From an uncultured virus (IMG/VR IMGVR_UViG_3300002835_000031) (taxonomy: Duplodnaviria; Heunggongvirae; Uroviricota; Caudoviricetes): a stretch of 64,000 nucleotides of DNA. The stretch is taken from the IMG/VR virus record IMGVR_UViG_3300002835_000031. One strand, given 5' to 3'. A model generated the notes under the pieces. It worked only from the letters and a program-made list of their open reading frames with translations, was not told where the DNA came from and made no database searches. Shown here in pieces: positions 23,597-54,979 of this stretch (its first letter is position 1; the number at the start of each line of letters is the position of its first letter). The position numbers and the translations under genes are program-made.

Positions 23597-25024
23597 TTAT
23601 ACTAATTGAATAAACGCAACACGATATGTTCCGGGGTCGTGTGTTGCTGTACCACCCGCAACCGTAACTGTGTGCGTATGACTTACGCCTACACTTTGAT
23701 GGCCGGTTTGGGTTGTTCTAACTCCACTACCTACTACTTGCGCAGTAGCATGTTGGTGAACCCAATCCCCATACGCTCCGCTTGATGAAAAAGTAAGCGT
23801 ATTCGAAGTCTCAACCGCTTGGTCCGACGCTGATGTGGAATATCCTAAAAAATATCCTCGCATGTCGACAGTATTATTCGCGCCATCACACAATTTCCAA
23901 TAAGAAGGCAATTCAGATAATGTGCCGTCATACATAACCATAGTACTTCCAAATGCAGGATCTGCAGTTGCGGCCACCCACATTTTCATTAGTTTACCTT
24001 TTATTGAATCTGGGGTAAATGTGCATGTTACATCGTGGTTATGATTTTGTCCTGTTCCTGAAGCTACATTATTTACACCCGATCCGGCACTAGAAGAACT
24101 TCTTACTCCGCCCTGTATGTGATCGTGTTGACCGTTTGTTCCCGTTGTCCCGGATACGCTCGCAGGAACTGCGGCCACCTCTGCCACCCCTGTAGAAACT
24201 CCGCGAACATATCGGTTATATGTTGTTCCAAGTTTCTGGGTCCAACCATTTTTATTTGAAGAATTAATATGTATTGTATTGGATGGGAATGTTGTTTGAT
24301 TACTGGATGCTCTTAACAATGTAACATTGCCGGTATGTGGTCTGGCATTGGTAACAGTTGCGGGGGCAATCGTTAAATCATGACTATGTTCTCCTGCAGG
24401 ATTAGCAGCTATACCGGTTATTGCCCCAGCATTTATACTTGAATTAAATTCATACCCAGATGTTTGTGTATGTGACCCAGCTAGCCCCAATGAAAATGTA
24501 TACGATACATTTGTAGCTGGGGAAGTACTTGTTCCTATTTCTGCTTGCGTAGTTGTACCTTGTAGATATAAATTATCTGCTGCGGAATATCTAGGCCATG
24601 ACGCATTGCTTGGATCGGACCCATTGTATAAAATAATTGTGCCGGCAGGTATAGTTGGATTTAATGTTGTAACTTGATTACTCACAACTCCGGTTTTTGA
24701 TCTACCTAATTTATTATATGAATAAACAGTAAAAGTATAAGTTGATGCTGGAGTTAAATTCTCCATAGTGATTGTTGCGCTTGCAATAGTTGTTACAATA
24801 CTTACATTTGACCCAGTATTAGATGTTGCAGATATTTCAAACCCTTCGGAGAAAGTATATCCGTCGATATTTGTAACACTATAACTTAAAACTACATTAG
24901 ATAAAGCAGGCGAACTTGCAGTAATAGTACCAGTTATGCTAGGCAAACCAATCTCATTGGGATCACCCATTAACTGAGCTTTGCCCGTTATACTTATATT
25001 CGATGACGTAATTTGTAACGACAT
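23597..25024 (-). CDS. tail fibre protein: FN3-like domain + two collar-like domains with HxH motifs
   Basis: LTPASTYTFTVYSYN (FN3); IPAGTIILYNG and LPSYWKLCDGANNTVDMRG (collar); HSH/HDH/HNH/HQH/HTH. Confidence 0.8.
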   Translation of the reverse strand: MSLQITSSNISITGKAQLMGDPNEIGLPSITGTITASSPALSNVVLSYSVTNIDGYTFSEGFEISATSNTGSNVSIVTTIASATITMENLTPASTYTFTVYSYNKLGRSKTGVVSNQVTTLNPTIPAGTIILYNGSDPSNASWPRYSAADNLYLQGTTTQAEIGTSTSPATNVSYTFSLGLAGSHTQTSGYEFNSSINAGAITGIAANPAGEHSHDLTIAPATVTNARPHTGNVTLLRASSNQTTFPSNTIHINSSNKNGWTQKLGTTYNRYVRGVSTGVAEVAAVPASVSGTTGTNGQHDHIQGGVRSSSSAGSGVNNVASGTGQNHNHDVTCTFTPDSIKGKLMKMWVAATADPAFGSTMVMYDGTLSELPSYWKLCDGANNTVDMRGYFLGYSTSASDQAVETSNTLTFSSSGAYGDWVHQHATAQVVGSGVRTTQTGHQSVGVSHTHTVTVAGGTATHDPGTYRVAFIQLV

Positions 25025-25069
25025 TATTCTATCTTTATTGTTTTCTAAAATTCATGAGTATAACAATTA

Positions 25070-25969
25070 TCATAACTTAGTTAATCGCACTGCACCCTGC
25101 GCCCAGGTTGTTACCAACGTGCCAGTATTTTCTCTCACAATATTAGATGCGATTGGATTAACATAAGAATTGGGTGAGCTGGTATTTAAACTATCGTATC
25201 CACCTGCAGGACCAACCGAATCATCTGTACCATTTCCACCACCGAACCCACCATATGTGGTTTGGTTGTTATACCCTGCTCCCGTGCCATTTATACTTTG
25301 ATTTTTCCAATTAGTATTGAATCCTGTTCCGACTGTTCCATCTGCTGAGCTTGAAGCAGTTGCAGGAGTTGAAAATCTTCCTTCACGTTGTCCTAGACCG
25401 CCAGCTGCAACTAATAATGCTGTCATATCACCAGCTGAAAAGGTCGAACTTCCGCTAGATGATTTTGCAACAACAGTAAATCCTCCGCCAGCCCCGCCCG
25501 CAAAATCCAAGCTACCCGAATTTCCACTTGCGCCCGCGCCTCCTATTGTTATCCAAAGTACATCTCCAGAGTTTAACGTAAAATCTCCTTGTACCGCAGA
25601 TCCTACGACAGACGGTTTATCAGTCGGTCCCCCGGATCCACCTTGCGATTTTATACGCCAGGTACCGGTTTCTGGAATTGTAAAATATATGTAACCAGCC
25701 GCGGAAGGTATTTTAATATATGTGGCAGCAACCATTGCATCATATGCTCCGGTTTGAGATGTTGAATTAAAATACCCATATATCTCTGCAGCAGTTTGTC
25801 CGGAAATAGGAGTAGTATCATTTGGACCGGAAGTTGTCCTACTTGAAGATACTGTTATTGGACTAGAATAAACGTATAAACCTGAGGGTGCAGGTGCTCC
25901 TGGCGGAGGCGTCTCACCGGAGGTTATTCTTCCGGAAAAACTAACATTATTTAAAGTAAATCTTGCCAT
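25070..25969 (-). CDS. glycine-rich virion/adhesin-like protein
   Basis: FTIPETGTWRIKSQGGSGG...GGAGGGFT..LLVAAGG..GGFGGG; N-terminal peptide + PPP. Confidence 0.75.
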   Translation of the reverse strand: MARFTLNNVSFSGRITSGETPPPGAPAPSGLYVYSSPITVSSSRTTSGPNDTTPISGQTAAEIYGYFNSTSQTGAYDAMVAATYIKIPSAAGYIYFTIPETGTWRIKSQGGSGGPTDKPSVVGSAVQGDFTLNSGDVLWITIGGAGASGNSGSLDFAGGAGGGFTVVAKSSSGSSTFSAGDMTALLVAAGGLGQREGRFSTPATASSSADGTVGTGFNTNWKNQSINGTGAGYNNQTTYGGFGGGNGTDDSVGPAGGYDSLNTSSPNSYVNPIASNIVRENTGTLVTTWAQGAVRLTKL

Positions 25970-25970
25970 G

Positions 25971-26411
25971 TTATGCTACCCGAGCAGTCCCGCCTATCAT
26001 AAACCATTTGTTGTCGGTATACAATAATGTTGCGCTATCACCCACATTGCTAAAAATAATGTTTGCGTTGTTGGCAACATTGGTATTTAAAATAAACGAA
26101 CCGTTGGCAGTGGATGTTGTTAACAATACTTTAACTTGACCATTGGCACCGTTGGGAATAGCTATAGTACTTTGAGAAGAACCTACTCCCAAGTATGTTA
26201 TGGGAGTGGTTATGTTAACAGTGCTGGCAGAAGTCATATCCTGAGGAGTTCCGCCAAGTACAATATTACCTTTTATTGTGGGATCAGTAATCCCGGCAAA
26301 TAAAATAGATGTGGTGACTTGTTTGCTTACACCGCTTTGAACCAGATACATTGCATCGGGTTTGTTAACTTGTGTTGCTGCGGTTAATTCTGATAATTTT
26401 GATTTTGCCAT
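25971..26411 (-). CDS. small virion structural protein
   Basis: KLSELTAA N-terminus typical of fibre anchors; beta-rich C-terminus GDSATLLY...WF; late promoter upstream. Confidence 0.7.
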   Translation of the reverse strand: MAKSKLSELTAATQVNKPDAMYLVQSGVSKQVTTSILFAGITDPTIKGNIVLGGTPQDMTSASTVNITTPITYLGVGSSQSTIAIPNGANGQVKVLLTTSTANGSFILNTNVANNANIIFSNVGDSATLLYTDNKWFMIGGTARVA

Positions 26412-26436
26412 TCTGGTACCAATTGCGTCTGTTAGT

Positions 26437-27308: not shown

Positions 27309-28460
27309 TTAATTTGTAATAGATAGCATATTTGCTCCGGCTGCAACACTGTACCATGTTGTAGACGAACCAACTTGTACTGGACTGGATCTATGTGTAG
27401 TATTGCCTAAACCAAGTGAGCCGGATCCATTTGCGCCCCATGTCCATAATGTACCATCGGTTTTGATTGCAGCACTAGTAAGATTACCAGCGGAAACCAT
27501 TGACCAATTTGTTAGTGCGCCAACCTGTACTGGGCTAGATTTGCTGATAGTAGTGCCGTCACCTAAATTGCCGTAAGTAGTATTATATCCCCATGACCAT
27601 AACGTTCCATCTGTTTTTATTGCTAAGGTATAACCGTCACCACCATCAATACTTGACCACGTAGTCAATGCGCCAATTTGTACTGGACTGGATCTATATA
27701 TAGTAGTGCCGTCACCTACATTGCCGTAATAATTGTAGCCCCAGCTCCATAAGGTGCCGTCTGTTTTAATGGCCGCGCTGGTGGACGACGCCGCGGCTAT
27801 CTTTGACCAAGTTGTTAGTGCACCAATTTGTTTTGGACTTGAATAATCTGTGGTATTACCCAAGCCTAATCGGCCAGAGCCACCACTACCCCAAGCCCAC
27901 ATGGTACCATCTGTTTTGACGGCTATGGTATGCAGAGAGCCGCCAGCAATTTTTGACCATGTGGTTAAAGCACCAATCTGTACTGGACTTGATCTGAATG
28001 CGGTATCACCTAACCCCAATTGCCCCATGCCAGTGCCATAATTTCCGCCCCATGACCACAAGGTACCATCTGTTTTAATGGCCAGGCTGTGACTATAGCC
28101 TGCAGCAATACTCAACCAAGTAGTTAAAGCACCAACTTGTACTGGGCTAGATACTCTACCAGATGGATATGTGCCAACTGGTTCGCCATTGCCCAATTGC
28201 CCAAATTGATTATATCCCCAGGTCCACAAGGTGCCATCAATTTTTGTTGCCATGCTGTACTGACCGCCTGTGGCAATCTGTGACCATGTGGTTAGTGCGC
28301 CAATCTGCACAGGACTAGATCTATCAATAGTAGATCCGTCACCAACTGCGCCGTAGGCATTATACCCCCATCCCTGTAGGTAATATACTGGCGGAATTGG
28401 AAAGACTGCTTGCGCGCTAACGTCGCCGACGAAATTTAAGCCTGAAAAAGTAAATGCCAT
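27309..28460 (-). CDS. RCC1-type beta-propeller protein
   Basis: Seven KTDGTLW.WG repeats; MAFTFSG...PIPP leader. Confidence 0.92.
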   Translation of the reverse strand: MAFTFSGLNFVGDVSAQAVFPIPPVYYLQGWGYNAYGAVGDGSTIDRSSPVQIGALTTWSQIATGGQYSMATKIDGTLWTWGYNQFGQLGNGEPVGTYPSGRVSSPVQVGALTTWLSIAAGYSHSLAIKTDGTLWSWGGNYGTGMGQLGLGDTAFRSSPVQIGALTTWSKIAGGSLHTIAVKTDGTMWAWGSGGSGRLGLGNTTDYSSPKQIGALTTWSKIAAASSTSAAIKTDGTLWSWGYNYYGNVGDGTTIYRSSPVQIGALTTWSSIDGGDGYTLAIKTDGTLWSWGYNTTYGNLGDGTTISKSSPVQVGALTNWSMVSAGNLTSAAIKTDGTLWTWGANGSGSLGLGNTTHRSSPVQVGSSTTWYSVAAGANMLSITN

Positions 28461-28472
28461 TTTGTTGTTCTT

Positions 28473-29594
28473 TTAATTTGAGATTGCCAGGATCACGTAG
28501 TCTGTGTTCGTAACACTAATCCACGTAGTGCGTGCGCCAATTTGTTTAGGGCTTGAATATGCTGTAGTATTACCTAAACCCAATGTGCTATTGCCACCGG
28601 TACCCCATGACCACAATGTACCATCTGTTTTAATTGCGTGGGCGGTGTAGCCTTTACTACTAACACTTGACCAAGTAGTCAATGCACCAATTTGAACCGG
28701 ACTAGATCTACTTGTAGTATCTCCTACCCCAAGGGCACCTTGATAATTTCTTCCCCACGACCACATTGTGCCATCGGTTTTAATGGCATATCCGCTTTCT
28801 GAACCTGCATTAATCGTTGACCAATTAGTTAGAGCACCAATTTGTTTTGGGCTTGAATATGCTGTAGTATTTCCTAAACCAAGTCTACCATGTGCATTTG
28901 TTCCCCACGACCACATGGTACCATCTGTTTTAATGGCCATGCTGTAGTATAATGCAGAAACATTTAACCAAGCTGTTAGAGCACCAACTTGTACTGGACT
29001 AGATCTGTTATTAGTATCTCCTAAGCCCAACTGACCGTTAGTATTGCTTCCCCACGACCATAAGGTACCATCTGTTTTAACGGCCAGGCAATGATATGTT
29101 CCACCAGAAATATTTAGCCAATTGGTTAATGCACCAATCTGTACTGGACTGGATCTGTTATTAGTATCTCCTAAGCCTAATGATCCTTGACCATTTCCGC
29201 CCCAAGCCCACAATGCGCCGTTTGTGTTAATAGCAACACCACCATTAAATCTAGCGGATATCTTTGCCCATGTAGTTAGAGCACCAATTTGTTTAGGACT
29301 AGAATACCGTGTGGTATTACCTAGGCCTAAATGTCCCGAATCGTTGTAACCCCATGTCCACATGGTACCATCGGTTTTAAGGGCTAGACTGTAAAGATAT
29401 TGCCCAGCAGTACTACTCCAATTAGTCAATGCCCCAACCTGATTCGGACTAGATCTACTTGCGGTATCGCCTAGCCCAAGTTGCCCAAAGTTCTGGTATC
29501 CCCATGACCATAAGTAAAATTCTGGAGGAGCGGGATGAGTAGTTGTGAGGTTAAGACCGGTTATTCCGCTTATGCCAGATAAAGTAAATGCCAT
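28473..29594 (-). CDS. RCC1-type beta-propeller protein
   Basis: Seven repeats; MAFTLSG...PAPP leader. Confidence 0.92.
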   Translation of the reverse strand: MAFTLSGISGITGLNLTTTHPAPPEFYLWSWGYQNFGQLGLGDTASRSSPNQVGALTNWSSTAGQYLYSLALKTDGTMWTWGYNDSGHLGLGNTTRYSSPKQIGALTTWAKISARFNGGVAINTNGALWAWGGNGQGSLGLGDTNNRSSPVQIGALTNWLNISGGTYHCLAVKTDGTLWSWGSNTNGQLGLGDTNNRSSPVQVGALTAWLNVSALYYSMAIKTDGTMWSWGTNAHGRLGLGNTTAYSSPKQIGALTNWSTINAGSESGYAIKTDGTMWSWGRNYQGALGVGDTTSRSSPVQIGALTTWSSVSSKGYTAHAIKTDGTLWSWGTGGNSTLGLGNTTAYSSPKQIGARTTWISVTNTDYVILAISN

Positions 29595-29610
29595 TTTGTT
29601 TTTCTTTTAA

Positions 29611-30759
29611 TTAATAGTAACCGATTGCTGCAGAGTGATAAAAAGTACCGGCAGCGGCATTTGTCCAAGCTGATAATGAACCTACTTGTGTTGGACTAGA
29701 TCTATCTAAAGTATCTCCTAGCCCAAGATTACCTGTACTTTGATATGTATCACCCCAAGACCATAGTGTGCCATCTGTTTTAATTGCCAACGTAAAATAC
29801 GAGCCCGAGTAAACGTTTCCCCAATTAGTTAATGCACCAACCTGTACTGGACTAGATCTATCTGTAGTATTGCCTAACCCTAATCGTCCATCTGCACCGT
29901 AACCCCATGACCACATGGTACCATCTGTTTTAATGGCCATATGATAATAATTACCAGCAGAAACCTTAGACCAATTTGTAAGGGAACCTACCTGTACTGG
30001 GCTAGATCTATGTGTAGTATCACCTTGGCCGAGTTCTCCATAAAAATTACTTCCAGTTGTCCATAATGTACCGTCTGTTTTAATTGCGGCCAGATGATAT
30101 GGACCTGCAGAAACTGTTGACCAAGTTGTTAAAGCACCAATCTGTACTGGACTAGATCTATCTGTAGTATTACCTTGACCTAATTGTCCGTAGGTATTTT
30201 TACCCCATCCCCACATTGTACCATTGGTTTTAATTGCATGAACGGTTCTATAATTGCCAGCTGAAACTTTTAACCAATTTGTAAGGGAACCTACCTGTAC
30301 TGGGCTGTCTCTATTTGATTCATCTCCTAATCCCAATGCACCTTTATAATTATTTCCCCATGCCCACAATGTTCCGTCTGTTTTAACTGCGGCAGTGTGA
30401 TAACCTCCACCGTCAAAACTATCAGCATTGCCGGCCCAATTAGTTAATGCACCAACTTGTTTTGGACTTGAATAAGTTGTAGTATTACCCAGCCCCAATA
30501 TTCCAGATACACCGTATCCCCATGTCCATAATGTACCATCGGTTTTAACCGATATTTTATGATAACCTCCGGCAGCAACTCTTAACCAATTAGACAATGC
30601 GCCAATTTGCACTGGGGTAGATTTATCAATTGTAGTTCCGTCACCTAGTGCACCATATCCACCATCACCCCAACTCCAAAGGTAATACCCCGGAGGAGTG
30701 GGTTGAATTATGTTAATTGTTACCCCTGCGTATCCGCCGCCTGAAAATGTAACTGCCAT
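29611..30759 (-). CDS. RCC1-type beta-propeller protein
   Basis: Seven repeats; MAVTFSG...PTPP leader. Confidence 0.92.
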   Translation of the reverse strand: MAVTFSGGGYAGVTINIIQPTPPGYYLWSWGDGGYGALGDGTTIDKSTPVQIGALSNWLRVAAGGYHKISVKTDGTLWTWGYGVSGILGLGNTTTYSSPKQVGALTNWAGNADSFDGGGYHTAAVKTDGTLWAWGNNYKGALGLGDESNRDSPVQVGSLTNWLKVSAGNYRTVHAIKTNGTMWGWGKNTYGQLGQGNTTDRSSPVQIGALTTWSTVSAGPYHLAAIKTDGTLWTTGSNFYGELGQGDTTHRSSPVQVGSLTNWSKVSAGNYYHMAIKTDGTMWSWGYGADGRLGLGNTTDRSSPVQVGALTNWGNVYSGSYFTLAIKTDGTLWSWGDTYQSTGNLGLGDTLDRSSPTQVGSLSAWTNAAAGTFYHSAAIGYY

Positions 30760-30786
30760 TTTTTGTTCTTTTCTTTTTTTTAATTT

Positions 30787-31914
30787 TTAGTTACTGATGG
30801 CCATGCTGTGAAAATAACCTGCGGCAACACTTGACCAATTAGTTAAAGCCCCAATTTGCACCGGACTAGATCTATCTGTAGTATTTCCTAAACCCAATTG
30901 ACCCGTATTATTAAAACCCCATGACCACATGGTACCGTCTGTTTTGATGGATAGGTTGTGATATTCACCGGCATCAACACTTGACCAAGTGGTTAACGCG
31001 CCAATTTGTGTTGGACTAGATCTATTTGCGGTATCGCCTAAACCCAATCGCCCCGCATAATTTCTACCCCATACCCACATGGTACCATCTGTTTTAATGG
31101 CCAAGTTATGATATTGACCAGCAGCAATATTTAACCAATTAGTTAAAGATCCAACTTGTTTTGGACTAGAATAGTATGTCGTATTACCTACCCCCAATTG
31201 CCCAAAATTATTTTTACCCCATAACCACATGGTTCCATCTGTTTTAATTGCCGATGTGTGCTCATAACCTGCAGCAATATTTAACCAATTAGTTAAAGAT
31301 CCAACTTGTTTTGGACTAGAATAGTATGTCGTATTACCTAGGCCTAATTGCCCTTTACCCCCAATACCCCATACCCACATGGTACCATCTGTTTTAATGG
31401 CCAAGTTATGATATTGACCAGCAACAATATTTGACCATGTGTTTAATGCACCAACCTGTACTGGACTAGATACAGATGTAGTATTACCTAGGCCTAATCG
31501 CCCGGCGGACCCGTTACCCCATACCCACATAGTACCATCTGTTTTGAGCGCCAGATTGTGTTGACCACCTGCACCAATTTTTGCCCAGGTAGTTAATGCA
31601 CCAATTTGTACTGGATTTGAATAATTTGTGGTATTACCTAAACCTAATTGACCAAGGCTACCCGATCCCCAAGACCATAGTGTACCATCTGTTTTAATGG
31701 CCAAGTTATGATATTGACCAGCAGCAATATTTAACCAATTAGTTAAAGCCCCAACTTGTACAGGACTAGATCTATCGGTAGTATTGCCTAATCCTAATTG
31801 ACCTGAATTATTTCTGCCCCATGACCACAGGTATTGCGGAGGAGGTGGCGGCGGAGCTGGGCATACTAGATTAAACCCGCCCCTTGTTGAAAAACCTGAA
31901 AAGGTAAATGCCAT
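30787..31914 (-). CDS. RCC1-type beta-propeller protein
   Basis: Seven repeats; start reassigned to MAFTFSG at 31914 by analogy with paralogs. Confidence 0.92.
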   Translation of the reverse strand: MAFTFSGFSTRGGFNLVCPAPPPPPPQYLWSWGRNNSGQLGLGNTTDRSSPVQVGALTNWLNIAAGQYHNLAIKTDGTLWSWGSGSLGQLGLGNTTNYSNPVQIGALTTWAKIGAGGQHNLALKTDGTMWVWGNGSAGRLGLGNTTSVSSPVQVGALNTWSNIVAGQYHNLAIKTDGTMWVWGIGGKGQLGLGNTTYYSSPKQVGSLTNWLNIAAGYEHTSAIKTDGTMWLWGKNNFGQLGVGNTTYYSSPKQVGSLTNWLNIAAGQYHNLAIKTDGTMWVWGRNYAGRLGLGDTANRSSPTQIGALTTWSSVDAGEYHNLSIKTDGTMWSWGFNNTGQLGLGNTTDRSSPVQIGALTNWSSVAAGYFHSMAISN

Positions 31915-31927
31915 TTTGTTTTTCTTT

Positions 31928-33058
31928 TTATCCGATAGCCAGGCTGAAAGAACCACCTGCAGAAACATTTGCCCAATTTGTTAATGATCCAATCTGCACT
32001 GGACTAGATCTATTTGTGATATCGCCTATACCCAATCGACCAGATTGATTATCGCCCCATGACCACATGGTACCATCTGTTTTAATGGCCAGATTGTGTT
32101 CAACACCCCCTGAAATATTTAACCAAGTAGTTAATGCACCAACTTGTACTGGACTAGATCTATTTGTAGTATCTCCTAACCCCAATGAGCCTACTGCATT
32201 TCTTCCCCAAGACCATAAAGTACCATCTGTTTTTACAGCCAGGCCGTGATAATACCCAGCGGAAACACTTTGCCAAGTAGTTAATGCGCCAATCTGTACA
32301 GGACTAGATCTATTTGTAGTATCGCCCAATCCAAGTTCGCCGTAACCATTAGCGCCCCATGTCCATAAAGTTCCATCTGTTTTAGTTGCGAGGGCACCAA
32401 ATCTAATATTAGTAATATTTGACCAAGTGGTTAAAGCGCCAATTTGTTGTGGGCTAGATGTATTTGTAGTATTACCCAATCCCAATTGCCCGTTAGACCC
32501 TTGTCCCCATGACCACATAGTACCATTGGTTTTAATTGCTGCAGCACCGTTTCCAGCAAGTGAAATTATAATTGCCCAATCAGTTAAGGAACCTACTTGT
32601 ACTGGACTAGAATATGATGTAGTATTGCCCAATCCTAACTTGTAACCATAATTACCACCCCACGCCCATAAGGTACCATTGGTTTTTATAGCAAACATAT
32701 TAGACGCTTTCCCTGTACTAATATTTGCCCAAGTAGTTAAAGCTCCAATCTGTTTTGGAGAAGAATAATATGTAGTATTACCTAAGCCTAATTGACCTGC
32801 ATAATTTCTGCCCCAAGACCACATTGTGCCATCTGTTTTTAGAGCCATTGCCCAACCTTCTGCTGCAGCAATACTTGACCAAGTGGTCAATGCACCAATC
32901 TGTTTTGGAGAAGAATAATCTGTAGTATTACCTAACCCCAATCGACCACTAATACCTTGACCCCATGACCAAAGATAATATATCGGAGGTGGTGGTGGTT
33001 GAGTAGTGGTAAATGATATACCCGAATAATTGCCGATACCTGAAATAGTAAATGCCAT
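31928..33058 (-). CDS. RCC1-type beta-propeller protein
   Basis: Seven repeats; MAFTISG...PPPPP leader. Confidence 0.92.
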   Translation of the reverse strand: MAFTISGIGNYSGISFTTTQPPPPPIYYLWSWGQGISGRLGLGNTTDYSSPKQIGALTTWSSIAAAEGWAMALKTDGTMWSWGRNYAGQLGLGNTTYYSSPKQIGALTTWANISTGKASNMFAIKTNGTLWAWGGNYGYKLGLGNTTSYSSPVQVGSLTDWAIIISLAGNGAAAIKTNGTMWSWGQGSNGQLGLGNTTNTSSPQQIGALTTWSNITNIRFGALATKTDGTLWTWGANGYGELGLGDTTNRSSPVQIGALTTWQSVSAGYYHGLAVKTDGTLWSWGRNAVGSLGLGDTTNRSSPVQVGALTTWLNISGGVEHNLAIKTDGTMWSWGDNQSGRLGIGDITNRSSPVQIGSLTNWANVSAGGSFSLAIG

Positions 33059-33073
33059 TTTGTTCTCTTTTTA

Positions 33074-34207: not shown

Positions 34208-34225
34208 TTTTTTTTATTCTTTTTA

Positions 34226-41026: not shown

Positions 41027-41083
41027 AAAATCACCTAATTATTGTGGTATATACTAATATTTTATCGGATTTAAGATATTTTG

Positions 41084-42402: not shown

Positions 42403-42417
42403 AATATTTCCAATAAT

Positions 42418-44143: not shown

Positions 44144-44161
44144 ATTAATTTATATTGTTAT

Positions 44162-45374: not shown

Positions 45375-45746
45375 TTAGCTTATATCCTCATAACTGCAAG
45401 TTACGTGAAGAACATTTCCAGTATCTGCAGTTGCCCCTAAACTTGTATTTTCTTCCAAGTAATATTGACTGCTTTTATCTATAACATTTAATGTACTGTT
45501 TCCAGGAACCGTTGTCCGGCCAACAATATTAAATGCATTGCCACTCAAGCTAGCTGCAGAATAATAACTTATTGTTACATTTGCAGACGTTGAAGTGTAA
45601 TTTGAAACGTTCAATACATTTATCTTTAAACATTTGCCAGAACTAGCGGCATTGTTTAGTATAGAAGTTGCAGTTATAGTTGTTAAGTTTGCTCCCGCTG
45701 TTTTACCATTGATTATTGTTGCGCCGATTATGTTTGGTGCTGCCAT
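45375..45746 (-). CDS. small beta-rich fibre-associated adaptor-like protein (MAAPNI type)
   Basis: 123 aa; directly follows the 1787-aa fibre. Confidence 0.7.
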   Translation of the reverse strand: MAAPNIIGATIINGKTAGANLTTITATSILNNAASSGKCLKINVLNVSNYTSTSANVTISYYSAASLSGNAFNIVGRTTVPGNSTLNVIDKSSQYYLEENTSLGATADTGNVLHVTCSYEDIS

Positions 45747-45747: not shown

Positions 45748-48700
45748 TTATCCTCCGAATATTAATGAATAGCCCACTGCTGCAGCTGCGCTTCCGCCTG
45801 CGCCTCCGCTACCAACAGTAGTCCAACCTGATGAAGTGTATACAACCAACGCGTTTGCGGTTGTGTTATAAACTGTATCGCCTTGTAATGCAGTTGCTAA
45901 AGCATTAGTATTAGAATAATTTGCAAATCTTATTGGCGTTGAAGCCTGTACTCTGCCGGTCGATTGTGGCGATAATAAAATATTACCAGATGTTGATATT
46001 GTTAAATCACCAAATCCATTAATAATTCCTGCAGTATTGCCAGAACTTAATGTTACAACAGATGAATTTGCACCTGTTGCAAGAATAATATTTCCGCCGG
46101 ATGTAATATTAACATTACCCGCGGAGAAAATTGTTCCACCAGCTGCGCCTGTACCATTGGCATAGAATGCGTTTGCTATTACGTTACCGGTGTTAATGTT
46201 GCCGGTATAAGTTATTAGGAACGCGGCAACATTGGCATTGGCAAATTGACTACCTTGTGGGTTTGCTGCAAGATAAGCAATAACATTTGAAACAACTCTT
46301 GCATTTGTATAATATAAGTTACCACTTGAAGCAAGTTCTGCAACATTGGCAGTTGTTAAATTAGCCTGCGTAACTGACCCACCGGCTGATATACCAGTAA
46401 CCGTTCCTCTAAATGTTATCGGACTGTTGACAAAAATGTTACCGCCAGCCAAATTCAAATTACCTGTAGCACTTAACAATAAGTTACTAGATGTCGATAA
46501 TTCTGCAGAGCCTGTACCTGTAGCAATAAATGTATTTGCAATTATGTTTCCGCTTGCAAGAACATTTGAAGCTGTTAAATTAATGGTATTATTTTGAGCA
46601 ATAATGTTCAAATTACCGGTTGAATTTAATGTGCCGGACGTTGCTGAAGGTGAAATAACTGTGTTAGCTATAACATTACCTGCGGAAATATTACCGGTAT
46701 ATGTTGTTAAGAATGCACTCACATTTGCATTACTATAACTTCCGCTTGTAGGATTTGTTAATAGATATGCTGCAACATTGGCATTACCATATGTACCGCC
46801 TTGTGGGTTTGCCGCAAGATAAGCAATAACATTTGAAACAACTCTTGCATTGGTGTAATATAGGTTGTTTAATTCTGTTACATTTGCCGTTGTTAAATTA
46901 GCCTGAGTAACCGATGCACTTGCAATACCCGTAACCGTTCCTCTGAATGTTATAGGGCTATTGACAAAAATGTTACCACCTGCCAAATTTAAATTGCCGG
47001 TCGCGCTTAATAACAAATTGCTTGAAGTTGAAAGTTCTGCGGAACCTGTACCTGTAGCAGTGAATGTGTTAGCAACAATATTGCCAGATGCAAGAACAGT
47101 ATTTGCAGTTAAATTAATTGTGTCACCGGAAACAATGTTCAAATTACCAGTTGAATTTAATGTGCCAGATGTTGCAAACGGTGAAATAACTGTGTTAGCA
47201 ATAACATTGCCAGCATTAATATTGCCGGTATATGTTGTCAGGAATGCGCCGACATTAGCATTACCAAAATTACTTATTATTGGATTTGCCGTTAAATAAG
47301 CAGTAACATTAGATAACACACGAGCATTTGTGTAATATAAATTGCCACTTGCGGCATTTTCATTTACATTTGCAGTGTTTAAATTAGCAGTTAATGCATA
47401 AGATGATAGTACTCCAATAACATTAGAATAAACTCTTGCATTTGTGTAGTATAGATTTGAACCTTCAGCAATACTAGAAGTCGTTAAGGTTAACCCTGTT
47501 AATCCTCCTCTTAATACCAGATTACCATTAACAAAAACATTTGGAGCAGTTAAGTTCAAATTACCGGCTGCACTTAATAATAAATTACTTGTGGATACTA
47601 TTTCACCGGAACCTGCACCTGCTGATATAAATGTATTTGCAACAATGTTGCCTGATACCAATACGTTGGGCGTGGTTAAATTAATTGTACCCACCGCAGT
47701 AATATTTAAATTGCCAGTAGATGTTAGTGTAGCTGATGTTGCCGTAGGAGAAACAAAGCTGTTAGAAATTATATTTCCTGCAGAAAGATTGCCCGTATAT
47801 GTTGTTAAGAATGAAGCAACATTGGCATTACTAAATGATGAAGATGCTGTAGGAGCAGCCCAGAATAAATTGCCTGTGCCATTTGTTTGCAGTATATACC
47901 CGGTCACCCCATCGGTCTTTGGCCATGCTTGCCCATCTAATATAATTCTACCTGTGCCGTTTGCAACCAATTCTATGTTGGAATTTCCGGTAGTTGATAT
48001 AGATAGAACACCCACGTTGTCTATTATGCCGCCGGTTAAAATTAAGTTACCTGCAGCAATGTTACCAGTGTATGTTGGCAATGCCGCTTCAATATTTGAT
48101 AATACTCGAGCATTGGTATAATATAAGTTTGAACCTTCGGCAATGCTTGATGTTGTTAGTGTTAATCCAGTTATTCCGCCTCTTAGTACTAAATTGCCGT
48201 TAACAAAAACATTCGATGATGTTAAGTTAAGATTACCGGCTGCACTTAATAACAAGTTACTTGTGGATGCAACTTCGCCTGAGCCTGCACCGGTCGATAT
48301 AAAATTATTTGCTACAACATTACCTGACACCAATACGTTTGGTGTTGTTAAATTAATTGTTCCGGCCGCAGTAATATTCAAATTACCCGTTGATGTCAAT
48401 GTTGCTGAAGTTGCGGTTGGCGATACAAAACTATTGGCAATTACATTACCGGCACTTAGATTGCCAGTATAAGTTGTTAAGAAAGAACTCACATTGGCAT
48501 TGCCAAAACTAACAGTCGCAGGATTTGCTGCTAAATATGCAATAACATTTGATACTACTCTGGCATTGGTATAATATAAGTTTGAACCTTCAGCAATGTT
48601 TGAAGTAGACAATGCTGATAATGCGCTTATAACATTAGAGTAAACTCTTGCATTCGTGTAGTATAAGTTTGAACCTTCAGCAATGCTTGATGTTGTTAAA

Positions 48701-51111
48701 GTTAAGCCTGACAGAGCACCTCGTAATACTAAATTGCCATTAACAAATACATTTGAAGATGTTAAGTTTAAATTACCAGCTGCGCTTAATAATATATTGC
48801 TTGTGGATGTAAGTTCTGCAGAGCCTGAGCCGGTTGCAATAAATGTATTTGCTACAATATTGCCTGACACCAACACATTGGTTGTTGTTAAATTAATTGC
48901 ACCTGCCGCAGTAATATTCAAATTGCCGGTAGATGTTATTGTTGCCGCTATTGCAGTAGGTGACAGAATTGTATTTGCAATTACATTACCTGCACTAATG
49001 TTACCGGTGTATGTTGTTAGGAATGAAGCAACATTGGCATTGGCAAATGATGATGCAGGTGCTGCCCAAAATAAGTTGCCTGTACCATTTGTTTGTAGTA
49101 CATAACCATTAATGCCATCGGTATGTGGCCATGCCTGCCCATCTAATAAAATTCTGCCATTACCTGCCGCAGATAATTCTATGTTGGAATTTGAAGTGGT
49201 TGCAATTGTCAATACACCAACATTATCTATTATTCCACCTGTCAATATTAAATTACCTGCAGCAAGATTGCCGGTGTATGTTGATAGGAATGATGCAACA
49301 TTGGCGTTACTAAAACTACCACTTACCGGATTTGCCGCAAGGTAAGCAGTAATATTTGATAAAACTCTGGCATTGGTATAGAAAATGCTATTGCCGGATT
49401 CAATTACGTTGGCCGTATATAGATTCAACCAAGTTGTTGCAGAAATATTACCCGCACTAATTAAATTGGCGCCTGTAAACGAACCACCGGAACCACTGCC
49501 TGTTATAATGTTATTGGCAACAATATTGCCCGATGCAATAACATTCGGAGATGTCAAATTAATTGCACCTAACGCAGTAATATTCAAATTACCTGTTGAT
49601 GTTATTGTTGCAGCTATTGCTGTAGGTGAAATAATTGTATTGGCAATAACATTGCCTGCAGTAATATTACCGGTGTATGTTGTTAGAAACGCACCTACAT
49701 TTGCGTTACCATATGTACTAATTGCGGGATTTGCTGCCAAATATGCAATAACATTTGATACTACTCTGGCGTTGGTGTAATATAAATTGTTTAATTCCGC
49801 AACATTGGCTGTGGTTAAATCTACTACATTGGCTTTTAATCTTAAATTAGACTCAACTTGAGCATTAACTCTGGCATTTGTATAGAATAGATTGTTTGTA
49901 CCTTCAGTAATACCATTTGTATTGCCTGAGAATGATGATGCACCTACTCCCGTTAGAGAAGAACCATCACCAAAGAATTTTGTTGCGATTACATTACCAG
50001 ATGCAATAACATTGCCGGAATTTAATGTAATATTTCCAGTGCCCGTGATATTAACATTACCGGTAGAAGATAATGTAGCAGAGCCTGTACCTACTGATAT
50101 AAATGTATTTGCAATTAAATTACCGCTTGCAATAACATTTGTGGAATTGATATTGACTGCACCTGCGGCAGTCATTGTAATGTTTCCAGTAGATGTAATC
50201 AACCCAGCAGATGCGCTTGCTGATATAAATCCATTTGCTATTACATTACCAGTAACATTTAGATTGCCTGTGATATTATTAACATTTACGGAAACGCCAG
50301 TCAAATTAGCAGAGATTTGACCATTAGCAGCGATAATAATGTTATTACCCTGTAATGACGGCATTAATGCTATAACATTGGATGCTACTCTGGCATTTGT
50401 ATAGTATAAATTATTACCTTCAGCAACATTGGCAGTTGTTAAATCAACTACATTGGCCTTGGCAGCCAATAATGATACCACATTGGCAAAAACTCTGGCA
50501 TTGGTAAAATAAAGATTACTTGCAGATTCTGTTACATTTGCAGTAAAAATTCCAGAATAACTATTTGCTGTTAAAGGTCCGTTAACAACAATACTTGATC
50601 CAGTTAAAGTAACGACGCCGGTTGCGGATATTGATACGTTGCCGGTGGATGATAATAATCCAGAGCCTGGGCCGGTTGATATAAAAGTGTTGGCAATAAC
50701 ATTGCCAGTTGCGATAACATTTGTAGAGTTGATATTGACTGCACCCGCAGCAGTCATGGTGATGTTGCCAGAGGATGAAATTAAGCCAGCAGAAGCACTT
50801 GTGGAAACGAAACCATTGGCAATTACATTGCCGCTAACATTCAAGTTGCCAGTAACAGAAGAAACACTTACCGCAGACAGGTTTGCTGAAATAAGACCAT
50901 TTGCTGCAATAGAGATATTATCGCCGGCAACAAGAGCGCCGATTGCCCTGGCGTTACTGAAATATACATTACCAGAACTTGTGTTTCCCGATTCAATAAC
51001 ATTACCGGTAAATATACTTTGGAAGGAAACATTGCCGGTGTTGGCACCCAGCAATTGGCCGTTACTTCCTCCATTTCCACTGATTAAACTTACATCTATT
51101 TTGCGAGCCAT
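45748..51111 (-). CDS. long Asn/Thr/Gly-rich repeat fibre protein (1787 aa)
   Basis: ~13 TANV.E..NLYYTNARV modules; ends AAAAVGYSLIFGG; AATAAATA at 51140-51147. Confidence 0.85.
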   Translation of the reverse strand: MARKIDVSLISGNGGSNGQLLGANTGNVSFQSIFTGNVIESGNTSSGNVYFSNARAIGALVAGDNISIAANGLISANLSAVSVSSVTGNLNVSGNVIANGFVSTSASAGLISSSGNITMTAAGAVNINSTNVIATGNVIANTFISTGPGSGLLSSTGNVSISATGVVTLTGSSIVVNGPLTANSYSGIFTANVTESASNLYFTNARVFANVVSLLAAKANVVDLTTANVAEGNNLYYTNARVASNVIALMPSLQGNNIIIAANGQISANLTGVSVNVNNITGNLNVTGNVIANGFISASASAGLITSTGNITMTAAGAVNINSTNVIASGNLIANTFISVGTGSATLSSTGNVNITGTGNITLNSGNVIASGNVIATKFFGDGSSLTGVGASSFSGNTNGITEGTNNLFYTNARVNAQVESNLRLKANVVDLTTANVAELNNLYYTNARVVSNVIAYLAANPAISTYGNANVGAFLTTYTGNITAGNVIANTIISPTAIAATITSTGNLNITALGAINLTSPNVIASGNIVANNIITGSGSGGSFTGANLISAGNISATTWLNLYTANVIESGNSIFYTNARVLSNITAYLAANPVSGSFSNANVASFLSTYTGNLAAGNLILTGGIIDNVGVLTIATTSNSNIELSAAGNGRILLDGQAWPHTDGINGYVLQTNGTGNLFWAAPASSFANANVASFLTTYTGNISAGNVIANTILSPTAIAATITSTGNLNITAAGAINLTTTNVLVSGNIVANTFIATGSGSAELTSTSNILLSAAGNLNLTSSNVFVNGNLVLRGALSGLTLTTSSIAEGSNLYYTNARVYSNVISALSALSTSNIAEGSNLYYTNARVVSNVIAYLAANPATVSFGNANVSSFLTTYTGNLSAGNVIANSFVSPTATSATLTSTGNLNITAAGTINLTTPNVLVSGNVVANNFISTGAGSGEVASTSNLLLSAAGNLNLTSSNVFVNGNLVLRGGITGLTLTTSSIAEGSNLYYTNARVLSNIEAALPTYTGNIAAGNLILTGGIIDNVGVLSISTTGNSNIELVANGTGRIILDGQAWPKTDGVTGYILQTNGTGNLFWAAPTASSSFSNANVASFLTTYTGNLSAGNIISNSFVSPTATSATLTSTGNLNITAVGTINLTTPNVLVSGNIVANTFISAGAGSGEIVSTSNLLLSAAGNLNLTAPNVFVNGNLVLRGGLTGLTLTTSSIAEGSNLYYTNARVYSNVIGVLSSYALTANLNTANVNENAASGNLYYTNARVLSNVTAYLTANPIISNFGNANVGAFLTTYTGNINAGNVIANTVISPFATSGTLNSTGNLNIVSGDTINLTANTVLASGNIVANTFTATGTGSAELSTSSNLLLSATGNLNLAGGNIFVNSPITFRGTVTGIASASVTQANLTTANVTELNNLYYTNARVVSNVIAYLAANPQGGTYGNANVAAYLLTNPTSGSYSNANVSAFLTTYTGNISAGNVIANTVISPSATSGTLNSTGNLNIIAQNNTINLTASNVLASGNIIANTFIATGTGSAELSTSSNLLLSATGNLNLAGGNIFVNSPITFRGTVTGISAGGSVTQANLTTANVAELASSGNLYYTNARVVSNVIAYLAANPQGSQFANANVAAFLITYTGNINTGNVIANAFYANGTGAAGGTIFSAGNVNITSGGNIILATGANSSVVTLSSGNTAGIINGFGDLTISTSGNILLSPQSTGRVQASTPIRFANYSNTNALATALQGDTVYNTTANALVVYTSSGWTTVGSGGAGGSAAAAVGYSLIFGG

Positions 51112-51164: not shown

Positions 51165-52157
51165 TTAAAACGTAATGGATCCTGAACTGGTCCATTGATA
51201 TATTCTATATCCGCCGGATACTATTACGTTAGGTGACCCTGTTGTACTTGTTGCTGATGAAAATGTATCTGCATAGCGGATGATTACAGTACCAGAACCT
51301 CCGGAACCAGCTATACCAGTTGTCCATCCTAAACCTCCACCACCACCGCCGGTATTTACGTTGCCAGATGTTGCACTTGCTGTTCCACTAGCCGCCATAA
51401 CGCCTGCACCACCACCTCCGGAACCACCATTTCCAGCAGTAGAGCCACCTTCACCGCCACCGCCACCGCCACCAGCATAATAAGTTGCAGTCCCGGTAAT
51501 AGAACTAACTGCACCAATGCCGCCATTGCCACCTGTTCCCGGAGAAGTACCATTTCCGTTTGCACCGACACCTCCCGCTCCGCCACCGCCACCAGCAACA
51601 TAAATTGTATTAGGACTAGTTCCGCGTGTTCCCGAACCACCATTATTACCTTGTCCTGCAGTACCTGTTCCACCAGCAATAGTTGTAAAAGAAGCAGCAG
51701 AAGAACCACCGCCACCAGAACCGCCATTAGCGCCAACTGAAACATATGCGCCACCACCGCCGCCGCCTATTGCTGTTACCGTAGTAAATCCAGAACCAGA
51801 TATACTTGAGTTAGCACCAGAAGCGGCTCGATTATTTGTTTGAGTTTGTGTTCCTTGTATTCCAACACCACCTGCGCCAACTGTTATTGTGTATGTAACA
51901 CTAACGGCTACGTTTGCCGTATTAGTTAGTAATCCACCTGCTCCGCCGCCGCCTCCGTCTGCTGAACCTCCTGCTCCTCCGCCAGCAACTACTAGATATT
52001 CTACCGTTGAAGTTGGAACAGGTGGCGGGGGCGGTTCTCCTGCAACTAAAATATTAACACTGACTTTTTGTCTTGCAATGGCACGAAAATTGTTCGCAGA
52101 TGCAGAAAACTTTTGTGTAGTACTAACTTTTGCAGCACTATACTTCCGTAAGGTCAT
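51165..52157 (-). CDS. glycine-rich virion/adhesin-like protein
   Basis: VEYLVVAGGG...YYAGGGGG...YRIYQWTSSGSITF; basic leader + PPPPPVP. Confidence 0.85.
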   Translation of the reverse strand: MTLRKYSAAKVSTTQKFSASANNFRAIARQKVSVNILVAGEPPPPPVPTSTVEYLVVAGGGAGGSADGGGGGAGGLLTNTANVAVSVTYTITVGAGGVGIQGTQTQTNNRAASGANSSISGSGFTTVTAIGGGGGGAYVSVGANGGSGGGGSSAASFTTIAGGTGTAGQGNNGGSGTRGTSPNTIYVAGGGGGAGGVGANGNGTSPGTGGNGGIGAVSSITGTATYYAGGGGGGGEGGSTAGNGGSGGGGAGVMAASGTASATSGNVNTGGGGGGLGWTTGIAGSGGSGTVIIRYADTFSSATSTTGSPNVIVSGGYRIYQWTSSGSITF

Positions 52158-52486
52158 TAGGTAACCTCAGTGCCGAACAGATTAAAACTAATATTTGTGG
52201 TATTTGCATATACTGTTACAACGTCTGTGGCAGCCAATGTTACACCGATTGTTAGCGATATTGAATCCAAAGCAGGAACAGTTGCATCAAAGGCAATATA
52301 ATGTTTGTTTGCCAGCGTTTCACCTGCAGGTCTTACTGCAATGCGATATGCTGCTGCACTGGCATTTTGATTACAAACTGATATTGTAGAAGTAACTGCA
52401 CTTGTGCCCGACGGAACAGTATACAGTGTATTTGCTGTACCTGCTGAAGGACTGATCTGTCCCAATACTTTATATGTTATCGCCAT
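52157..52486 (-). CDS. small adaptor-like protein (YKVLGQ type)
   Basis: 109 aa; paralog of 54989..55318. Confidence 0.75.
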   Translation of the reverse strand: MAITYKVLGQISPSAGTANTLYTVPSGTSAVTSTISVCNQNASAAAYRIAVRPAGETLANKHYIAFDATVPALDSISLTIGVTLAATDVVTVYANTTNISFNLFGTEVT

Positions 52487-52495
52487 TTTTATCTC

Positions 52496-52855
52496 TTATT
52501 CTGTTGTTGTAACAACTTCTACCCAATTTTGAACTTCTTCGTTCCATGCATAAATTTTATCATCATCTGGTTTTGCTATAGGTGCTTCCCATAAGCAAGT
52601 ATTTTCATTTAATACCCAAGAATTAAATGGTGTTGGTGGTATAAATGCATCTCTTGTTGCATCATACCTATAACCAATACCAGCATAATTTTTTCGTAAT
52701 GGAGTACCCCCATTGATGTGAACGCCTGCATGAGTGTTATAGCTTGTTTGTACCCAGCTTGCGGGATCACCAAACAAACCAGTATCAATTACATCTTGCT
52801 CGACAACGATAACCTGTGTAACGATACCGTTTTCTACTTTTGCGAAATGGCTCAT
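52496..52855 (-). CDS. conserved small phage protein (MSHFAKVENG...LRKNYAGIG...DAFIPP.PF.SW), possible chaperone
   Basis: AGGAG SD; GATAAATA at 52880-52887; family recalled next to Gly-rich phage genes. Confidence 0.75.
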   Translation of the reverse strand: MSHFAKVENGIVTQVIVVEQDVIDTGLFGDPASWVQTSYNTHAGVHINGGTPLRKNYAGIGYRYDATRDAFIPPTPFNSWVLNENTCLWEAPIAKPDDDKIYAWNEEVQNWVEVVTTTE

Positions 52856-52885
52856 TTTAAAAAACTCCTATTTTCCTGTTATTTA

Positions 52886-53845
52886 TCAGAATGTTATTGA
52901 ACCGGATGAGGTAAATTGATATATTCTATATCCGCCAGATACTGTTACGTTAGGTGAACCTGTTGTAGCTGTTGCTGCATTATATGTATCTGCATAGCGA
53001 AGGATTACAATTCCAGAACCACCAGCACCGCCAGAAAATCTTGATCCTGAATAAGCACCGCCACCACCACCCCCACCTCCAGAATTAGTGCCGCCGGCGC
53101 CACCGGCGCCACCGGTTGTTCCACTTGCTCCTCCGTTACTTCCGCCTGCACCGGATAATCCTGAACCAGAAGAACCTCCCCCACCTCCCCCCCCACCGCC
53201 GCCGCCGCCAGCAGAAAGTCTATAACCGCTACCGCCACCGCCGCCAGCATAATATGTTGCAGTTCCGGAAATATCAGTTGATGTACCGGAACCGCCGGTA
53301 CCGCCAGTAGGGGATGCACTTGCAGGCCCCGCATTACCTCCAACAGTATTAGAGCCACCTCCACCTCCACCAGCACCATCGATAGAACCATTTAATCCAC
53401 CTCCACCATTATTGCCTTGACTAGGTGATGTTGATGGCGTGTTTCCTGCACCGCCTGTTGTTGGTATAGTAGGAGATAAACCGTAACCTGTACCACCACC
53501 GGATCCACCAGAAGCGCCATTTAATCCAACTGAGGTAGTTCCATAACCCCCGCCAGTTGAGGTAATATCTCCAAATACAGAATTTGATCCCGAAATACCG
53601 TTGCCTCCGCCAGAGCCACCGGACCCACCACCGCCAACGGTAACAGTAATAGCAGAACCAGATGTTACAGAGTAACCAGCCGCAGTTCTGTACCCACCAG
53701 CACCGCCACCGCCACCATCAGAGCCACCACCACCTCCACCAGCAACTACTAGATATTCAACTGTTGGGGTAGGAGAAGGAGGAGGCGGAGTAATTGTTAG
53801 GGCTACCCCTGATCCGATTGAGATACCATTGAATGAAATTGCCAT
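52886..53845 (-). CDS. glycine-rich virion/adhesin-like protein
   Basis: VEYLVVAGGGGGG...YRIYQFTSSGSITF; MAISFNG...PPPPSPTP leader. Confidence 0.85.
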   Translation of the reverse strand: MAISFNGISIGSGVALTITPPPPSPTPTVEYLVVAGGGGGGSDGGGGGAGGYRTAAGYSVTSGSAITVTVGGGGSGGSGGGNGISGSNSVFGDITSTGGGYGTTSVGLNGASGGSGGGTGYGLSPTIPTTGGAGNTPSTSPSQGNNGGGGLNGSIDGAGGGGGGSNTVGGNAGPASASPTGGTGGSGTSTDISGTATYYAGGGGGSGYRLSAGGGGGGGGGGGGSSGSGLSGAGGSNGGASGTTGGAGGAGGTNSGGGGGGGGAYSGSRFSGGAGGSGIVILRYADTYNAATATTGSPNVTVSGGYRIYQFTSSGSITF

Positions 53846-53860
53846 TTTTTTACTTTTAAT

Positions 53861-54979
53861 TTATGACGAGATTGCAGTTGAATGTCTATATCCTGCAGAA
53901 ACATTCAACCAATTAGTTAAAGCACCAATTTGTACTGGACTAGATCTATTTGTGGTATTACCTTGACCTAATTGACCGTAGCTATTACCGCCCCATGACC
54001 ACAGTGTACCGTCGGTTTTAACTGCCGTAGTATGGAATTGTCCCGCATCAATTTTTGACCAAGTAGTCAATGCTCCAACTTGTACAGGGCTAAATATATC
54101 AGTAGTATTACCTAAACCCAATCGGCCTGTCTCGCCTGAACCCCAAGCCCATAATGTACCATCTGTTTTAATGGCTACATTATGCTGATATGCTGCTTCT
54201 ATAATTGACCAATTGGTCAACGCACCAACTTGTGCTGGACTAGAACCACCGCCCGATCCTCCATCTTGTCCTGCATTGTTTCTACCCCAAGCCCACAATG
54301 TACCATTGGTTTTAATGGCAATCGTATGATGGTCTCCGCTAGTACAGCGCAACCAATTATTTAATGCGCCAACTTGCACAGGACTAGATCTATAAAATGT
54401 ATTGCCCTGGCCCAACTGCCCATAAAAATTATTTCCCCATGACCACAGGGTACCATCGGTTTTTACGGCAAACGACGATGAACCGCCGGTGCCAATACTC
54501 GCCCACGTGGTTAATGCGCCAACTTGTTTGGGACTTGAATATGCTGTAGTATTACCGAAGCCAAGTTGTCCCGAGCCATTGGTTCCCCATGCCCACATGG
54601 TGCCATCTGTTTTTATAGCCAAACTATGCTCGCGGCCGCTGGCCAGACTACTCCAACCGGTTAATGCGCCAACTTGTACTGGACTAGATCTTGCGGTTGT
54701 AGTATTATCCCCCAATTGTCCACTGGCGTTATTACCCCAACTCCATAATGTACCATCTGTTTTTATAGCTGTATTATGATACCCACCGCCAGCAACACTT
54801 AACCAATTACCCAGGGCACCAATTTGCGTGGGGCTCGATCTATTTGTGGTATCTCCCACGCCCAATCTCCCGTGGTAATTTACTCCCCATGACCATAAGT
54901 AAAATTCTGGTGGCGGAGGCAGATCAGGTGTCTCGTATGAAAATGTTCCACCAAATGTTAGATTTTGAAATGTGATCAT
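53861..54979 (-). CDS. RCC1-type beta-propeller protein
   Basis: Seven repeats; MITFQN...PPPP leader. Confidence 0.92.
   Translation of the reverse strand: MITFQNLTFGGTFSYETPDLPPPPEFYLWSWGVNYHGRLGVGDTTNRSSPTQIGALGNWLSVAGGGYHNTAIKTDGTLWSWGNNASGQLGDNTTTARSSPVQVGALTGWSSLASGREHSLAIKTDGTMWAWGTNGSGQLGFGNTTAYSSPKQVGALTTWASIGTGGSSSFAVKTDGTLWSWGNNFYGQLGQGNTFYRSSPVQVGALNNWLRCTSGDHHTIAIKTNGTLWAWGRNNAGQDGGSGGGSSPAQVGALTNWSIIEAAYQHNVAIKTDGTLWAWGSGETGRLGLGNTTDIFSPVQVGALTTWSKIDAGQFHTTAVKTDGTLWSWGGNSYGQLGQGNTTNRSSPVQIGALTNWLNVSAGYRHSTAISS

Follow-up and report, generated by a model that had tools for sequence, protein, structure and literature searches.

A short leader shared by unrelated head domains of a lake phage as a probable virion attachment tag

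Docking peptides described so far serve to fasten a single trimeric tailspike, or a few of them, to an adjacent partner. In phages with a KP32-type dual set of receptor-binding proteins (RBPs), deletion of a conserved 29-residue N-terminal peptide stops incorporation, and the peptide can carry a foreign head; a single protein, a trimeric secondary depolymerase, bears the peptide, and the adjacent primary RBP, which has a T4 gp10-like branching domain, is its partner (available part of PMC13352976). The gp38 adhesins of T2, T6 and S16 join an attachment part to a glycine-rich head, their subtypes fit the fibre C-terminus as a key fits a lock, and exchange occurs near conserved motifs; the attachment domain is folded, the single gene lies right after gp37 and there is one head fold (accessible text of PMC3157838; the lock-and-key logic also appears in that of PMC7289586). 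In HFTV1, a ring of jelly-roll proteins takes up the N-termini of a head that binds glycans (available portion of bioRxiv 10.1101/2024.12.09.627619). Here we describe a shorter peptide, the A-tag, that opens 14 proteins with unrelated heads in a 64,000-nt stretch of an uncultured member of the Caudoviricetes (IMG/VR record IMGVR_UViG_3300002835_000031; the whole stretch is called the window) and that probably acts as a short attachment tag, plugging any protein joined to it into a site that recurs on the virion. The labels A-tag, B and C (other leader classes), TE and KISEL were coined in this analysis and are not published names; genes are named by their first coordinate.

Ten RCC1 proteins (10930, 36257, 53861 and the seven tandem genes of Table 1) and four glycine-rich proteins (12079, 25070, 35362 and 52886) start with a beta-patterned leader of 15-20 residues, just as written in the preliminary description, and all 14 have a proline-rich stretch past residue 15-20. 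The similar start reported there for fibre 23597 is a weaker copy, always the top outsider at 7-10 bits and without a proline run. With leave-one-out profiles of the beta part alone, prolines removed, 12 of the 14 leaders outranked all 63 other minus-strand genes of the window bar 23597; the exceptions were 12079 (3rd of 64) and 10930 (6th of 64). Three other heads in the range bear different leader classes (42950 and 44162, class B; 51165, class C). The RCC1 heads have PF00415 (seven times) and PF25390 above the cut-off and seven four-stranded blades, and PF21722 is above the cut-off in 35362 and 52886 and below it in 12079; 52886 had no sequence match in the PDB.

In an AlphaFold2 model of 36257 (pLDDT 93.7) the 28-stranded propeller starts at residue 27, and residues 1-26 are without secondary structure in the monomer; as modelled, the leader forms a module that lies outside the head fold and can be separated from it. 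Being N-terminal and moderately hydrophobic, it might still be taken for a cleaved export signal or a part of the head fold, an objection already raised in the preliminary description. Either is extremely unlikely: hydrophobic runs are at most 2-3 residues long and K or R occurs within the first five residues in 2 of 15 leaders, so that the basic n-region and uninterrupted hydrophobic h-region of a Sec/Tat signal peptide are both lacking, and the peptide not only lies outside the propeller but also occurs on unrelated folds, at one C-terminus and in proteins that have no head.

The identical 16-mer noted earlier in 35362 and 36257 is exact and present only at those two places (Table 1). It is the longest exact match among the 91 leader pairs and terminates at the first proline codon. 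Since the RCC1 bodies share longer exact matches, of 20-45 nt, in all 45 pairs, the 16-mer reflects recent shared ancestry and not a special site. Residues 1-7 are the same in 35362 and 36257, and 6 of 6 variable codons differ; residues are kept under synonymous saturation, and selection therefore acts on the peptide. Judged by its codons, the leader is under protein-level selection.

Behind the tag, the head varies among sister phages. The relative L053 is 97.6% identical to the window across 3955 bases and then diverges; in the 12079 slot the window, L053 and the metagenome contig L416 have almost the same sequence upstream and up to the end of codon 13, and all separate at codon 14. The head that follows is glycine-rich in the window, LamG in L053 (E 2e-15) and, in L416, an Lcl-type head of 130 aa that lacks a proline run (Lcl_C, E 1e-6, under the cut-off). 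In L053 a non-coding remnant of the end of the glycine-rich gene persists after the stop of the LamG gene, and the LamG head is therefore the newcomer. The sister alleles of 10930 also keep the tag and diverge just within the proline stretch. On these alignments, the tag is retained while recombination at its 3' end replaces one head with another of unrelated fold. The preliminary description had placed the divergence at the proline run and had taken the GC-rich proline codons for the swap junction. The placement stands for 35362/36257 and for 10930, where the junctions lie at or just inside the proline stretch, but not for the 12079 slot, and the proposed junction has to be given up, since the 12079 alleles part before the prolines and one of them has no proline run at all. 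That three alleles part at codon 14 implies that the crossover uses the coding sequence of the tag itself and that the proline codons are dispensable. Two or fewer prolines occur in residues 15-32 of 74 of the 106 tagged heads collected below, and the high GC content of the run follows from CCN codons being GC-rich by construction.

As the swaps retain the upstream region and the first 13 codons, as A-rich upstream regions are alike across the array and as the window leaders are quite diverged, one possible explanation is that the leader matters only as DNA, serving incoming heads as a favourable start of translation and as a homology arm, with no function of the peptide. This is improbable in view of the residues kept despite synonymous saturation, the same peptide pattern in distant phage groups, a copy at a C-terminus and the mini-proteins described below, a third of which is made up by the tag.

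Outside the window, homologues of the LamG head bear many leader classes, one of them regular (I-x-I-G-x-G-I-T-I-G-x-G-I), and pattern scans for this form yielded 28 and 111 IMG/VR stretches. A joint tag profile gave 250 candidate starts at 8 bits or more vs 5 in reversed controls. The profile search for other head types that had been proposed found a related tag on many further folds: 106 distinct complete tagged heads, from contigs of myovirus type as well as podovirus type, form 30 BLAST clusters (the glycine-rich ones over-split) and include LamG, Gly_rich_2, ALK-GRD, RCC1, DUF285 and unnamed domains of 100 aa. Ten large records picked for bearing a tag have 1-7 matches each at E<=1. A profile built without window relatives ranked 52886 (12.5 bits), 34226 (8.1), 33074 (6.9) and 31928 (2.8) as the top four of 82 window genes. 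Searched against 1.84 billion proteins, a profile gave 14 matches at E<=0.001, comprising 12 N-terminal tags and two repeat artefacts; the tag is too short for a census of this kind. An Atlas search with the tag alone returned no named family (scores under 0.9), tblastn of the tag, a mini-protein and 52886 found no useful match among cultured phage records, and PDB sequence searches with the tag, adaptor, KISEL anchor, TE peptide and hexad profiles gave nothing significant. No description of the tag was found in open-licence full texts (PMC, bioRxiv) as judged by titles and abstract openings.

Tagged genes sit among fibre, chaperone and hub genes, and in podoviruses between fibre and hub genes. 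In the cultured cyanophage S-SRM01, related RCC1 genes lie directly after the distal tail-fibre gene, accompanied by a modification cassette that resembles the one in the window. Many tagged genes outside the window, like the pair at 10930-12975, are placed amid non-structural genes, which would suit a tag that targets a structure inside the infected cell or on its surface (exclusion, anti-defence or a scaffold) and not the virion. We regard this as very unlikely, because the same lectin-like, polyglycine and propeller families bear class B and C leaders in fibre-adaptor cassettes and because of the position of the podovirus genes.

The tag is not confined to the front of heads. A 985-aa protein of L144 carries it at the C-terminus (17.7 bits). 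Separately, S8 peptidases of L008 (6303-7901) and L166 (10908-12455) end, by eye, in a loose tag-like peptide and adjoin KISEL fibres and tagged heads. Among 80 podovirus loci retrieved via the hub gene, tagged heads and second KISEL-anchored fibres appeared mutually exclusive. The explanation is that each KISEL fibre has its own preceding open reading frame (ORF) with a tag and a TE peptide, three short hydrophobic-Thr-Glu units: all 13 loci with a KISEL-type fibre have such an ORF of 46-49 aa immediately upstream (11 by profile, 2 by eye; two duplicate pairs). Overall, these mini-proteins are 46-53 aa long and lie 0-25 nt ahead of the fibre genes, and the same arrangement occurs in a jumbo phage. 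Their ORFs are smaller than the usual gene-calling size and fall into unnamed Atlas clusters, of which those of 46-52-aa proteins have 219, 109 and 53 members; a word search with one mini-protein found only 4 close relatives. In a separate scan, a TE-ending gene preceded 18 of 79 KISEL genes, compared with 23 of 2604 background C-termini (by profile, 10 and 3). The TE-ending genes ahead of KISEL fibres in L285-L409 have many different N-terminal parts, which would make TE and KISEL a second and general peptide-anchor pair. By the post-hub gene, 45 of the 80 loci belong to a second podovirus subfamily, many with little upstream DNA, in which no tag exceeded 6 bits; seven first-subfamily loci with upstream DNA are also tagless (L206, L215, L226-228, L230, L276). 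The simplest reading of the gene order is that TE would bind the fibre anchor while the tag hangs the pair on the particle.

Where the tag would dock was considered through gene order. The 109-123-aa adaptors align as a single family, with an eight-stranded jelly-roll fold in the model, and gene order has them linking particular fibre C-termini to class B or class C heads. They had been proposed, along with 25971, 37420, 52496 and the fibre C-termini, as the common socket of the A heads, and no protein of the locus could be identified as such. Only 1 of 34 distinct adaptors precedes an A head (window 54989), a MAAPN adaptor comes immediately before 15 of 56 class B heads, and some podoviruses have tagged heads but no such adaptor; the adaptors were therefore rejected, and the A socket, as far as gene order can tell, is probably elsewhere and may be encoded outside the window. 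By the same approach, 25971, 37420 and 52496 showed no fixed association with tagged heads.

Post-hub fibres of podoviruses (L124 12514-14940 and its kindred) have internal hexad segments of 30 to 54 residues that vary by whole six-residue units and are much longer in L276. As a general socket this segment was rejected on co-occurrence: it tracks the tag by subfamily, yet L225 has tags without the segment and L226-228 and L276 the segment without a tag, and none was found in fibres of the window or its nearest record, nor in the myovirus records G001, G005 and G006, with weak signals in G002 and G003. The hexad pattern, which these fibres share with the tag, suits another reading, in which three tags form a short triple beta-helix that assembles heads into homo- or mixed trimers, any attachment being separate. 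The weak tag start of the probably trimeric 23597 (His-x-His fibres of its kind being presumably trimers) agrees with this, as does the sole PDB sequence match of the tag profile, a hexapeptide beta-helix at E 1.2. Such self-assembly is unlikely, given the absence or weakness of the hexad segment in all five myovirus records and a fixed head-less mini-protein before fibres, which it leaves unexplained unless the trimer also docks; it is compatible with docking and the two are not mutually exclusive. When three copies of the 52886 tag (32 aa, 106-row alignment) were modelled as a complex, the score was 0.02 and no answer emerged, which weighs neither way.

We thus return to the attachment tag as the probable explanation. 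Most of the heads (RCC1, polyglycine sandwich, LamG, Lcl) would be monomers that bind a receptor or a surface and sit on a spacer of prolines or glycines, and the tag, some 2.5 hexapeptide-like units, would fold only upon binding. It might do so by adding two or three short beta strands to the beta-edge or beta-helix end of a virion protein, a binding mode to which the hexad pattern and the occurrence of the tag at N- and C-termini alike point, and to which we give about an even chance. The tag-plus-TE mini-protein would then hang a whole KISEL-anchored fibre from the same site as the tagged heads. More tentatively, and with the balance somewhat against it, uncultured aquatic phages of unrelated morphotypes could share a set of orthogonal plugs and sockets (the A-tag; class B and C leaders with jelly-roll adaptors; TE with KISEL; direct fibre-end/leader pairs), in which the A-tag would be the universal plug, completing a beta-helix or beta-edge at a repeated site of the virion from either terminus, one particle would wear a mixed coat of a dozen unrelated binding folds and the tag-TE mini-proteins would be adapters between two plug standards.

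Several points weigh against the attachment reading. No socket was found, and of 111 tagged heads 76 have no recognisable partner before them, 32 come after another tagged head and 1 after an adaptor; many tagged genes stand alone amid non-structural genes. Proteomics, a cultured host or a virion map was found for no tagged protein. The contact of TE with KISEL is deduced purely from gene order, and no TE match was found in the nearest record, which is 40% complete. The outside set is biased to the canonical motif, having been collected by patterns for it, and with the profile built without window relatives the remaining ten window leaders score near zero, so that most window leaders are tied to the evidence from the C-terminal copy and the mini-proteins only by way of intermediates (e.g. 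L110, L136). Finally, contigs crossing the 12079 junction in four lake runs carry the window allele, among the contigs listed, and no exchange junction was seen among them, with 538 further loose ends; swaps are therefore events between strains and not frequent within those samples.

The window is a portion of a T4-like phage, with ribonucleotide reductase, primase and thymidylate synthase genes and, on the minus strand, a long block of fibre, chaperone and head genes (Table 1). The nearest record (G001, 82.5 kb) adds about 21 kb, bringing the genome seen so far to about 85 kb. The array was recovered at 99.6-100% identity from several independent IMG/VR contigs, and at least 78% of its words are present in at least 24 runs among the matches listed, all from freshwater or lakes and four of them possible sources; it is therefore no assembly artefact.

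Table 1 Features of the window and mini-protein ORFs of other loci
Feature	Coordinates	Strand	Remarks
A-tag + RCC1 propeller	10930..12066	-	tag kept in sister alleles, which diverge just inside the proline stretch
A-tag + glycine-rich head	12079..12975	-	three-allele slot in sister phages; kept tag = nt 12937-12975
Tail-fibre assembly chaperone-like protein, after fibre 23597	23057..23584	-	PHROG 8716/4912/188; Pfam Phage_tail_APC below cut-off
Fibre-like protein: fn3 domain, His-x-His repeats, weak A-tag start, no proline run	23597..25024	-	
A-tag + ALK/LTK-type glycine-rich head	25070..25969	-	similar tag on a different head in relative L006
Short protein, KISEL-type fibre anchor at N-terminus	25971..26411	-	
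Seven tandem A-tag + RCC1 genes (27309, 28473, 29611, 30787, 31928, 33074, 34226)	27309..35332	-	
A-tag + Gly_rich_2 head	35362..36240	-	PF21722 E 3e-20
16-mer copy 1, final tag codons to first Pro codon of 35362	36181..36196	-	
A-tag + RCC1	36257..37399	-	model: seven-bladed propeller from residue 27, tag outside
16-mer copy 2, within the 36257 tag	37340..37355	-	
128-aa protein preceding the array, no family	37420..37806	-	
Two RCC1 heads with class B leader	42950..45373	-	
123-aa adaptor, MAAPN type	45375..45746	-	between fibre end and class B heads in many phages
1787-aa fibre	45748..51111	-	C-terminal motif of the type preceding MAAPN adaptors
Gly_rich_2 head with class C leader	51165..52157	-	
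109-aa jelly-roll adaptor	52157..52486	-	family of Pelagibacter phage 'virion structural protein'
119-aa phrog_7759 protein	52496..52855	-	often adjoins glycine-rich heads of several leader classes
A-tag + Gly_rich_2 head	52886..53845	-	tag closest to the widespread form
A-tag + RCC1	53861..54979	-	only A head seen directly after an adaptor
109-aa adaptor after fibre 55329	54989..55318	-	
1582-aa fibre	55329..60077	-	C-terminal motif found ahead of 109-aa adaptors
Tag + TE mini-protein ORFs	L212 7057-7203; L169 9989-10150		
Further tag + TE mini-protein loci	L207, L210, L213, L214, L218-L220, L222-L224, L274, L278, L139		

Most A-head genes of the window have an A-rich upstream region without a Shine-Dalgarno motif, unlike several neighbouring genes. 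The ORF listed at 30787-31968 starts 18 codons too early, and the true start is the second Met (nt 31914), where the tag and an A-rich upstream region are found. The head genes are interspersed with two sulfotransferase-domain genes and with methyltransferase, glycosyltransferase-like, DUF6445 and APS kinase genes (37874-42909, 26457-27248). Proteins 37420 and 52496 may be chaperone-like. A close relative has an additional 184-aa gene between its 25070 and 23597 homologues (L005 1704-2258), and the L008 homologue of 25971 (3238-5214) has 658 aa and is a collagen fibre bearing an S74 chaperone. ORF 62985 (62985-63956) is the end of a 2065-aa fibre (L283 2287-8484) that, via G001, lies right after a phrog_613 'head protein' gene and whose N-terminus resembles the entire 25971, KISEL anchor and next domain; the fibre tree may be capsid-linked. 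The class B leader, in one piece in the window (42950-45373), is split across two neighbouring head genes in many phages (L026, L028, L029, L035, L039, L059), which suggests that two different heads share one adaptor. In one podovirus family (L204-L282), every fibre C-terminal motif has a head leader of its own, an adaptor being present in some cases and absent in others; there are at least 4 such pairings.

If the attachment reading is true, one tag of fewer than 20 residues would serve propellers, lectins, polyglycine heads and whole fibres, large lake phages could acquire binding proteins from a shared pool and reshuffle them by one crossover, and it would be explained why tagged genes can sit anywhere in a genome. 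It would also give a function to the unannotated 46-52-aa Atlas clusters, predict partner pairs and, once the socket is found, offer a compact handle for protein display.

Compared with the systems described above, the adaptors and the tag have different relatives. The model of a 109-aa adaptor of the window matches the HFTV1 turret base protein (Z 9.4, root-mean-square deviation 2.8, 96 aligned) and the KHP40 cement protein (Z 10.2, 2.6, 102 aligned); this analogy extends to the adaptor fold only, a common one (nucleoplasmin ties at Z 10.1), and concerns classes B and C, not the A-tag. The widespread tag can be read as roughly 2.5 hexads, each opened by Ile-Gly, in the manner of a hexapeptide left-handed beta-helix, and differs from such a helix in standing alone with less than one full coil, and in the five-residue spacing often seen in the window versions; Pfam Hexapep had no match on the window heads scanned. 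The lock-and-key rule of gp38 is obeyed by the fibre-end/leader pairings of classes B and C and of the podovirus leaders, whereas the A-tag is below 20 residues, has no matching or fixed fibre end and carries many folds. With the KP32 peptide, the A-tag shares, by arrangement, a short separable N-terminal peptide across RBPs with different specificity domains. Unlike that peptide, it is found on 14-15 genes per genome, on unrelated and probably monomeric folds with no fixed neighbour, also at a C-terminus and in head-less adaptor forms, and across myo- and podovirus-type genomes; its heads are not beta-helical depolymerase tailspikes but RCC1, glycine-rich, LamG, Lcl and DUF285 domains, and the only match to a gp10-like branching domain in the window is PF23618, below the cut-off, on 62985. 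The A-tag would work like KP32 peptide docking, yet it is a distinct and unnamed family, set apart from KP32 and gp38 by head type or gene position.

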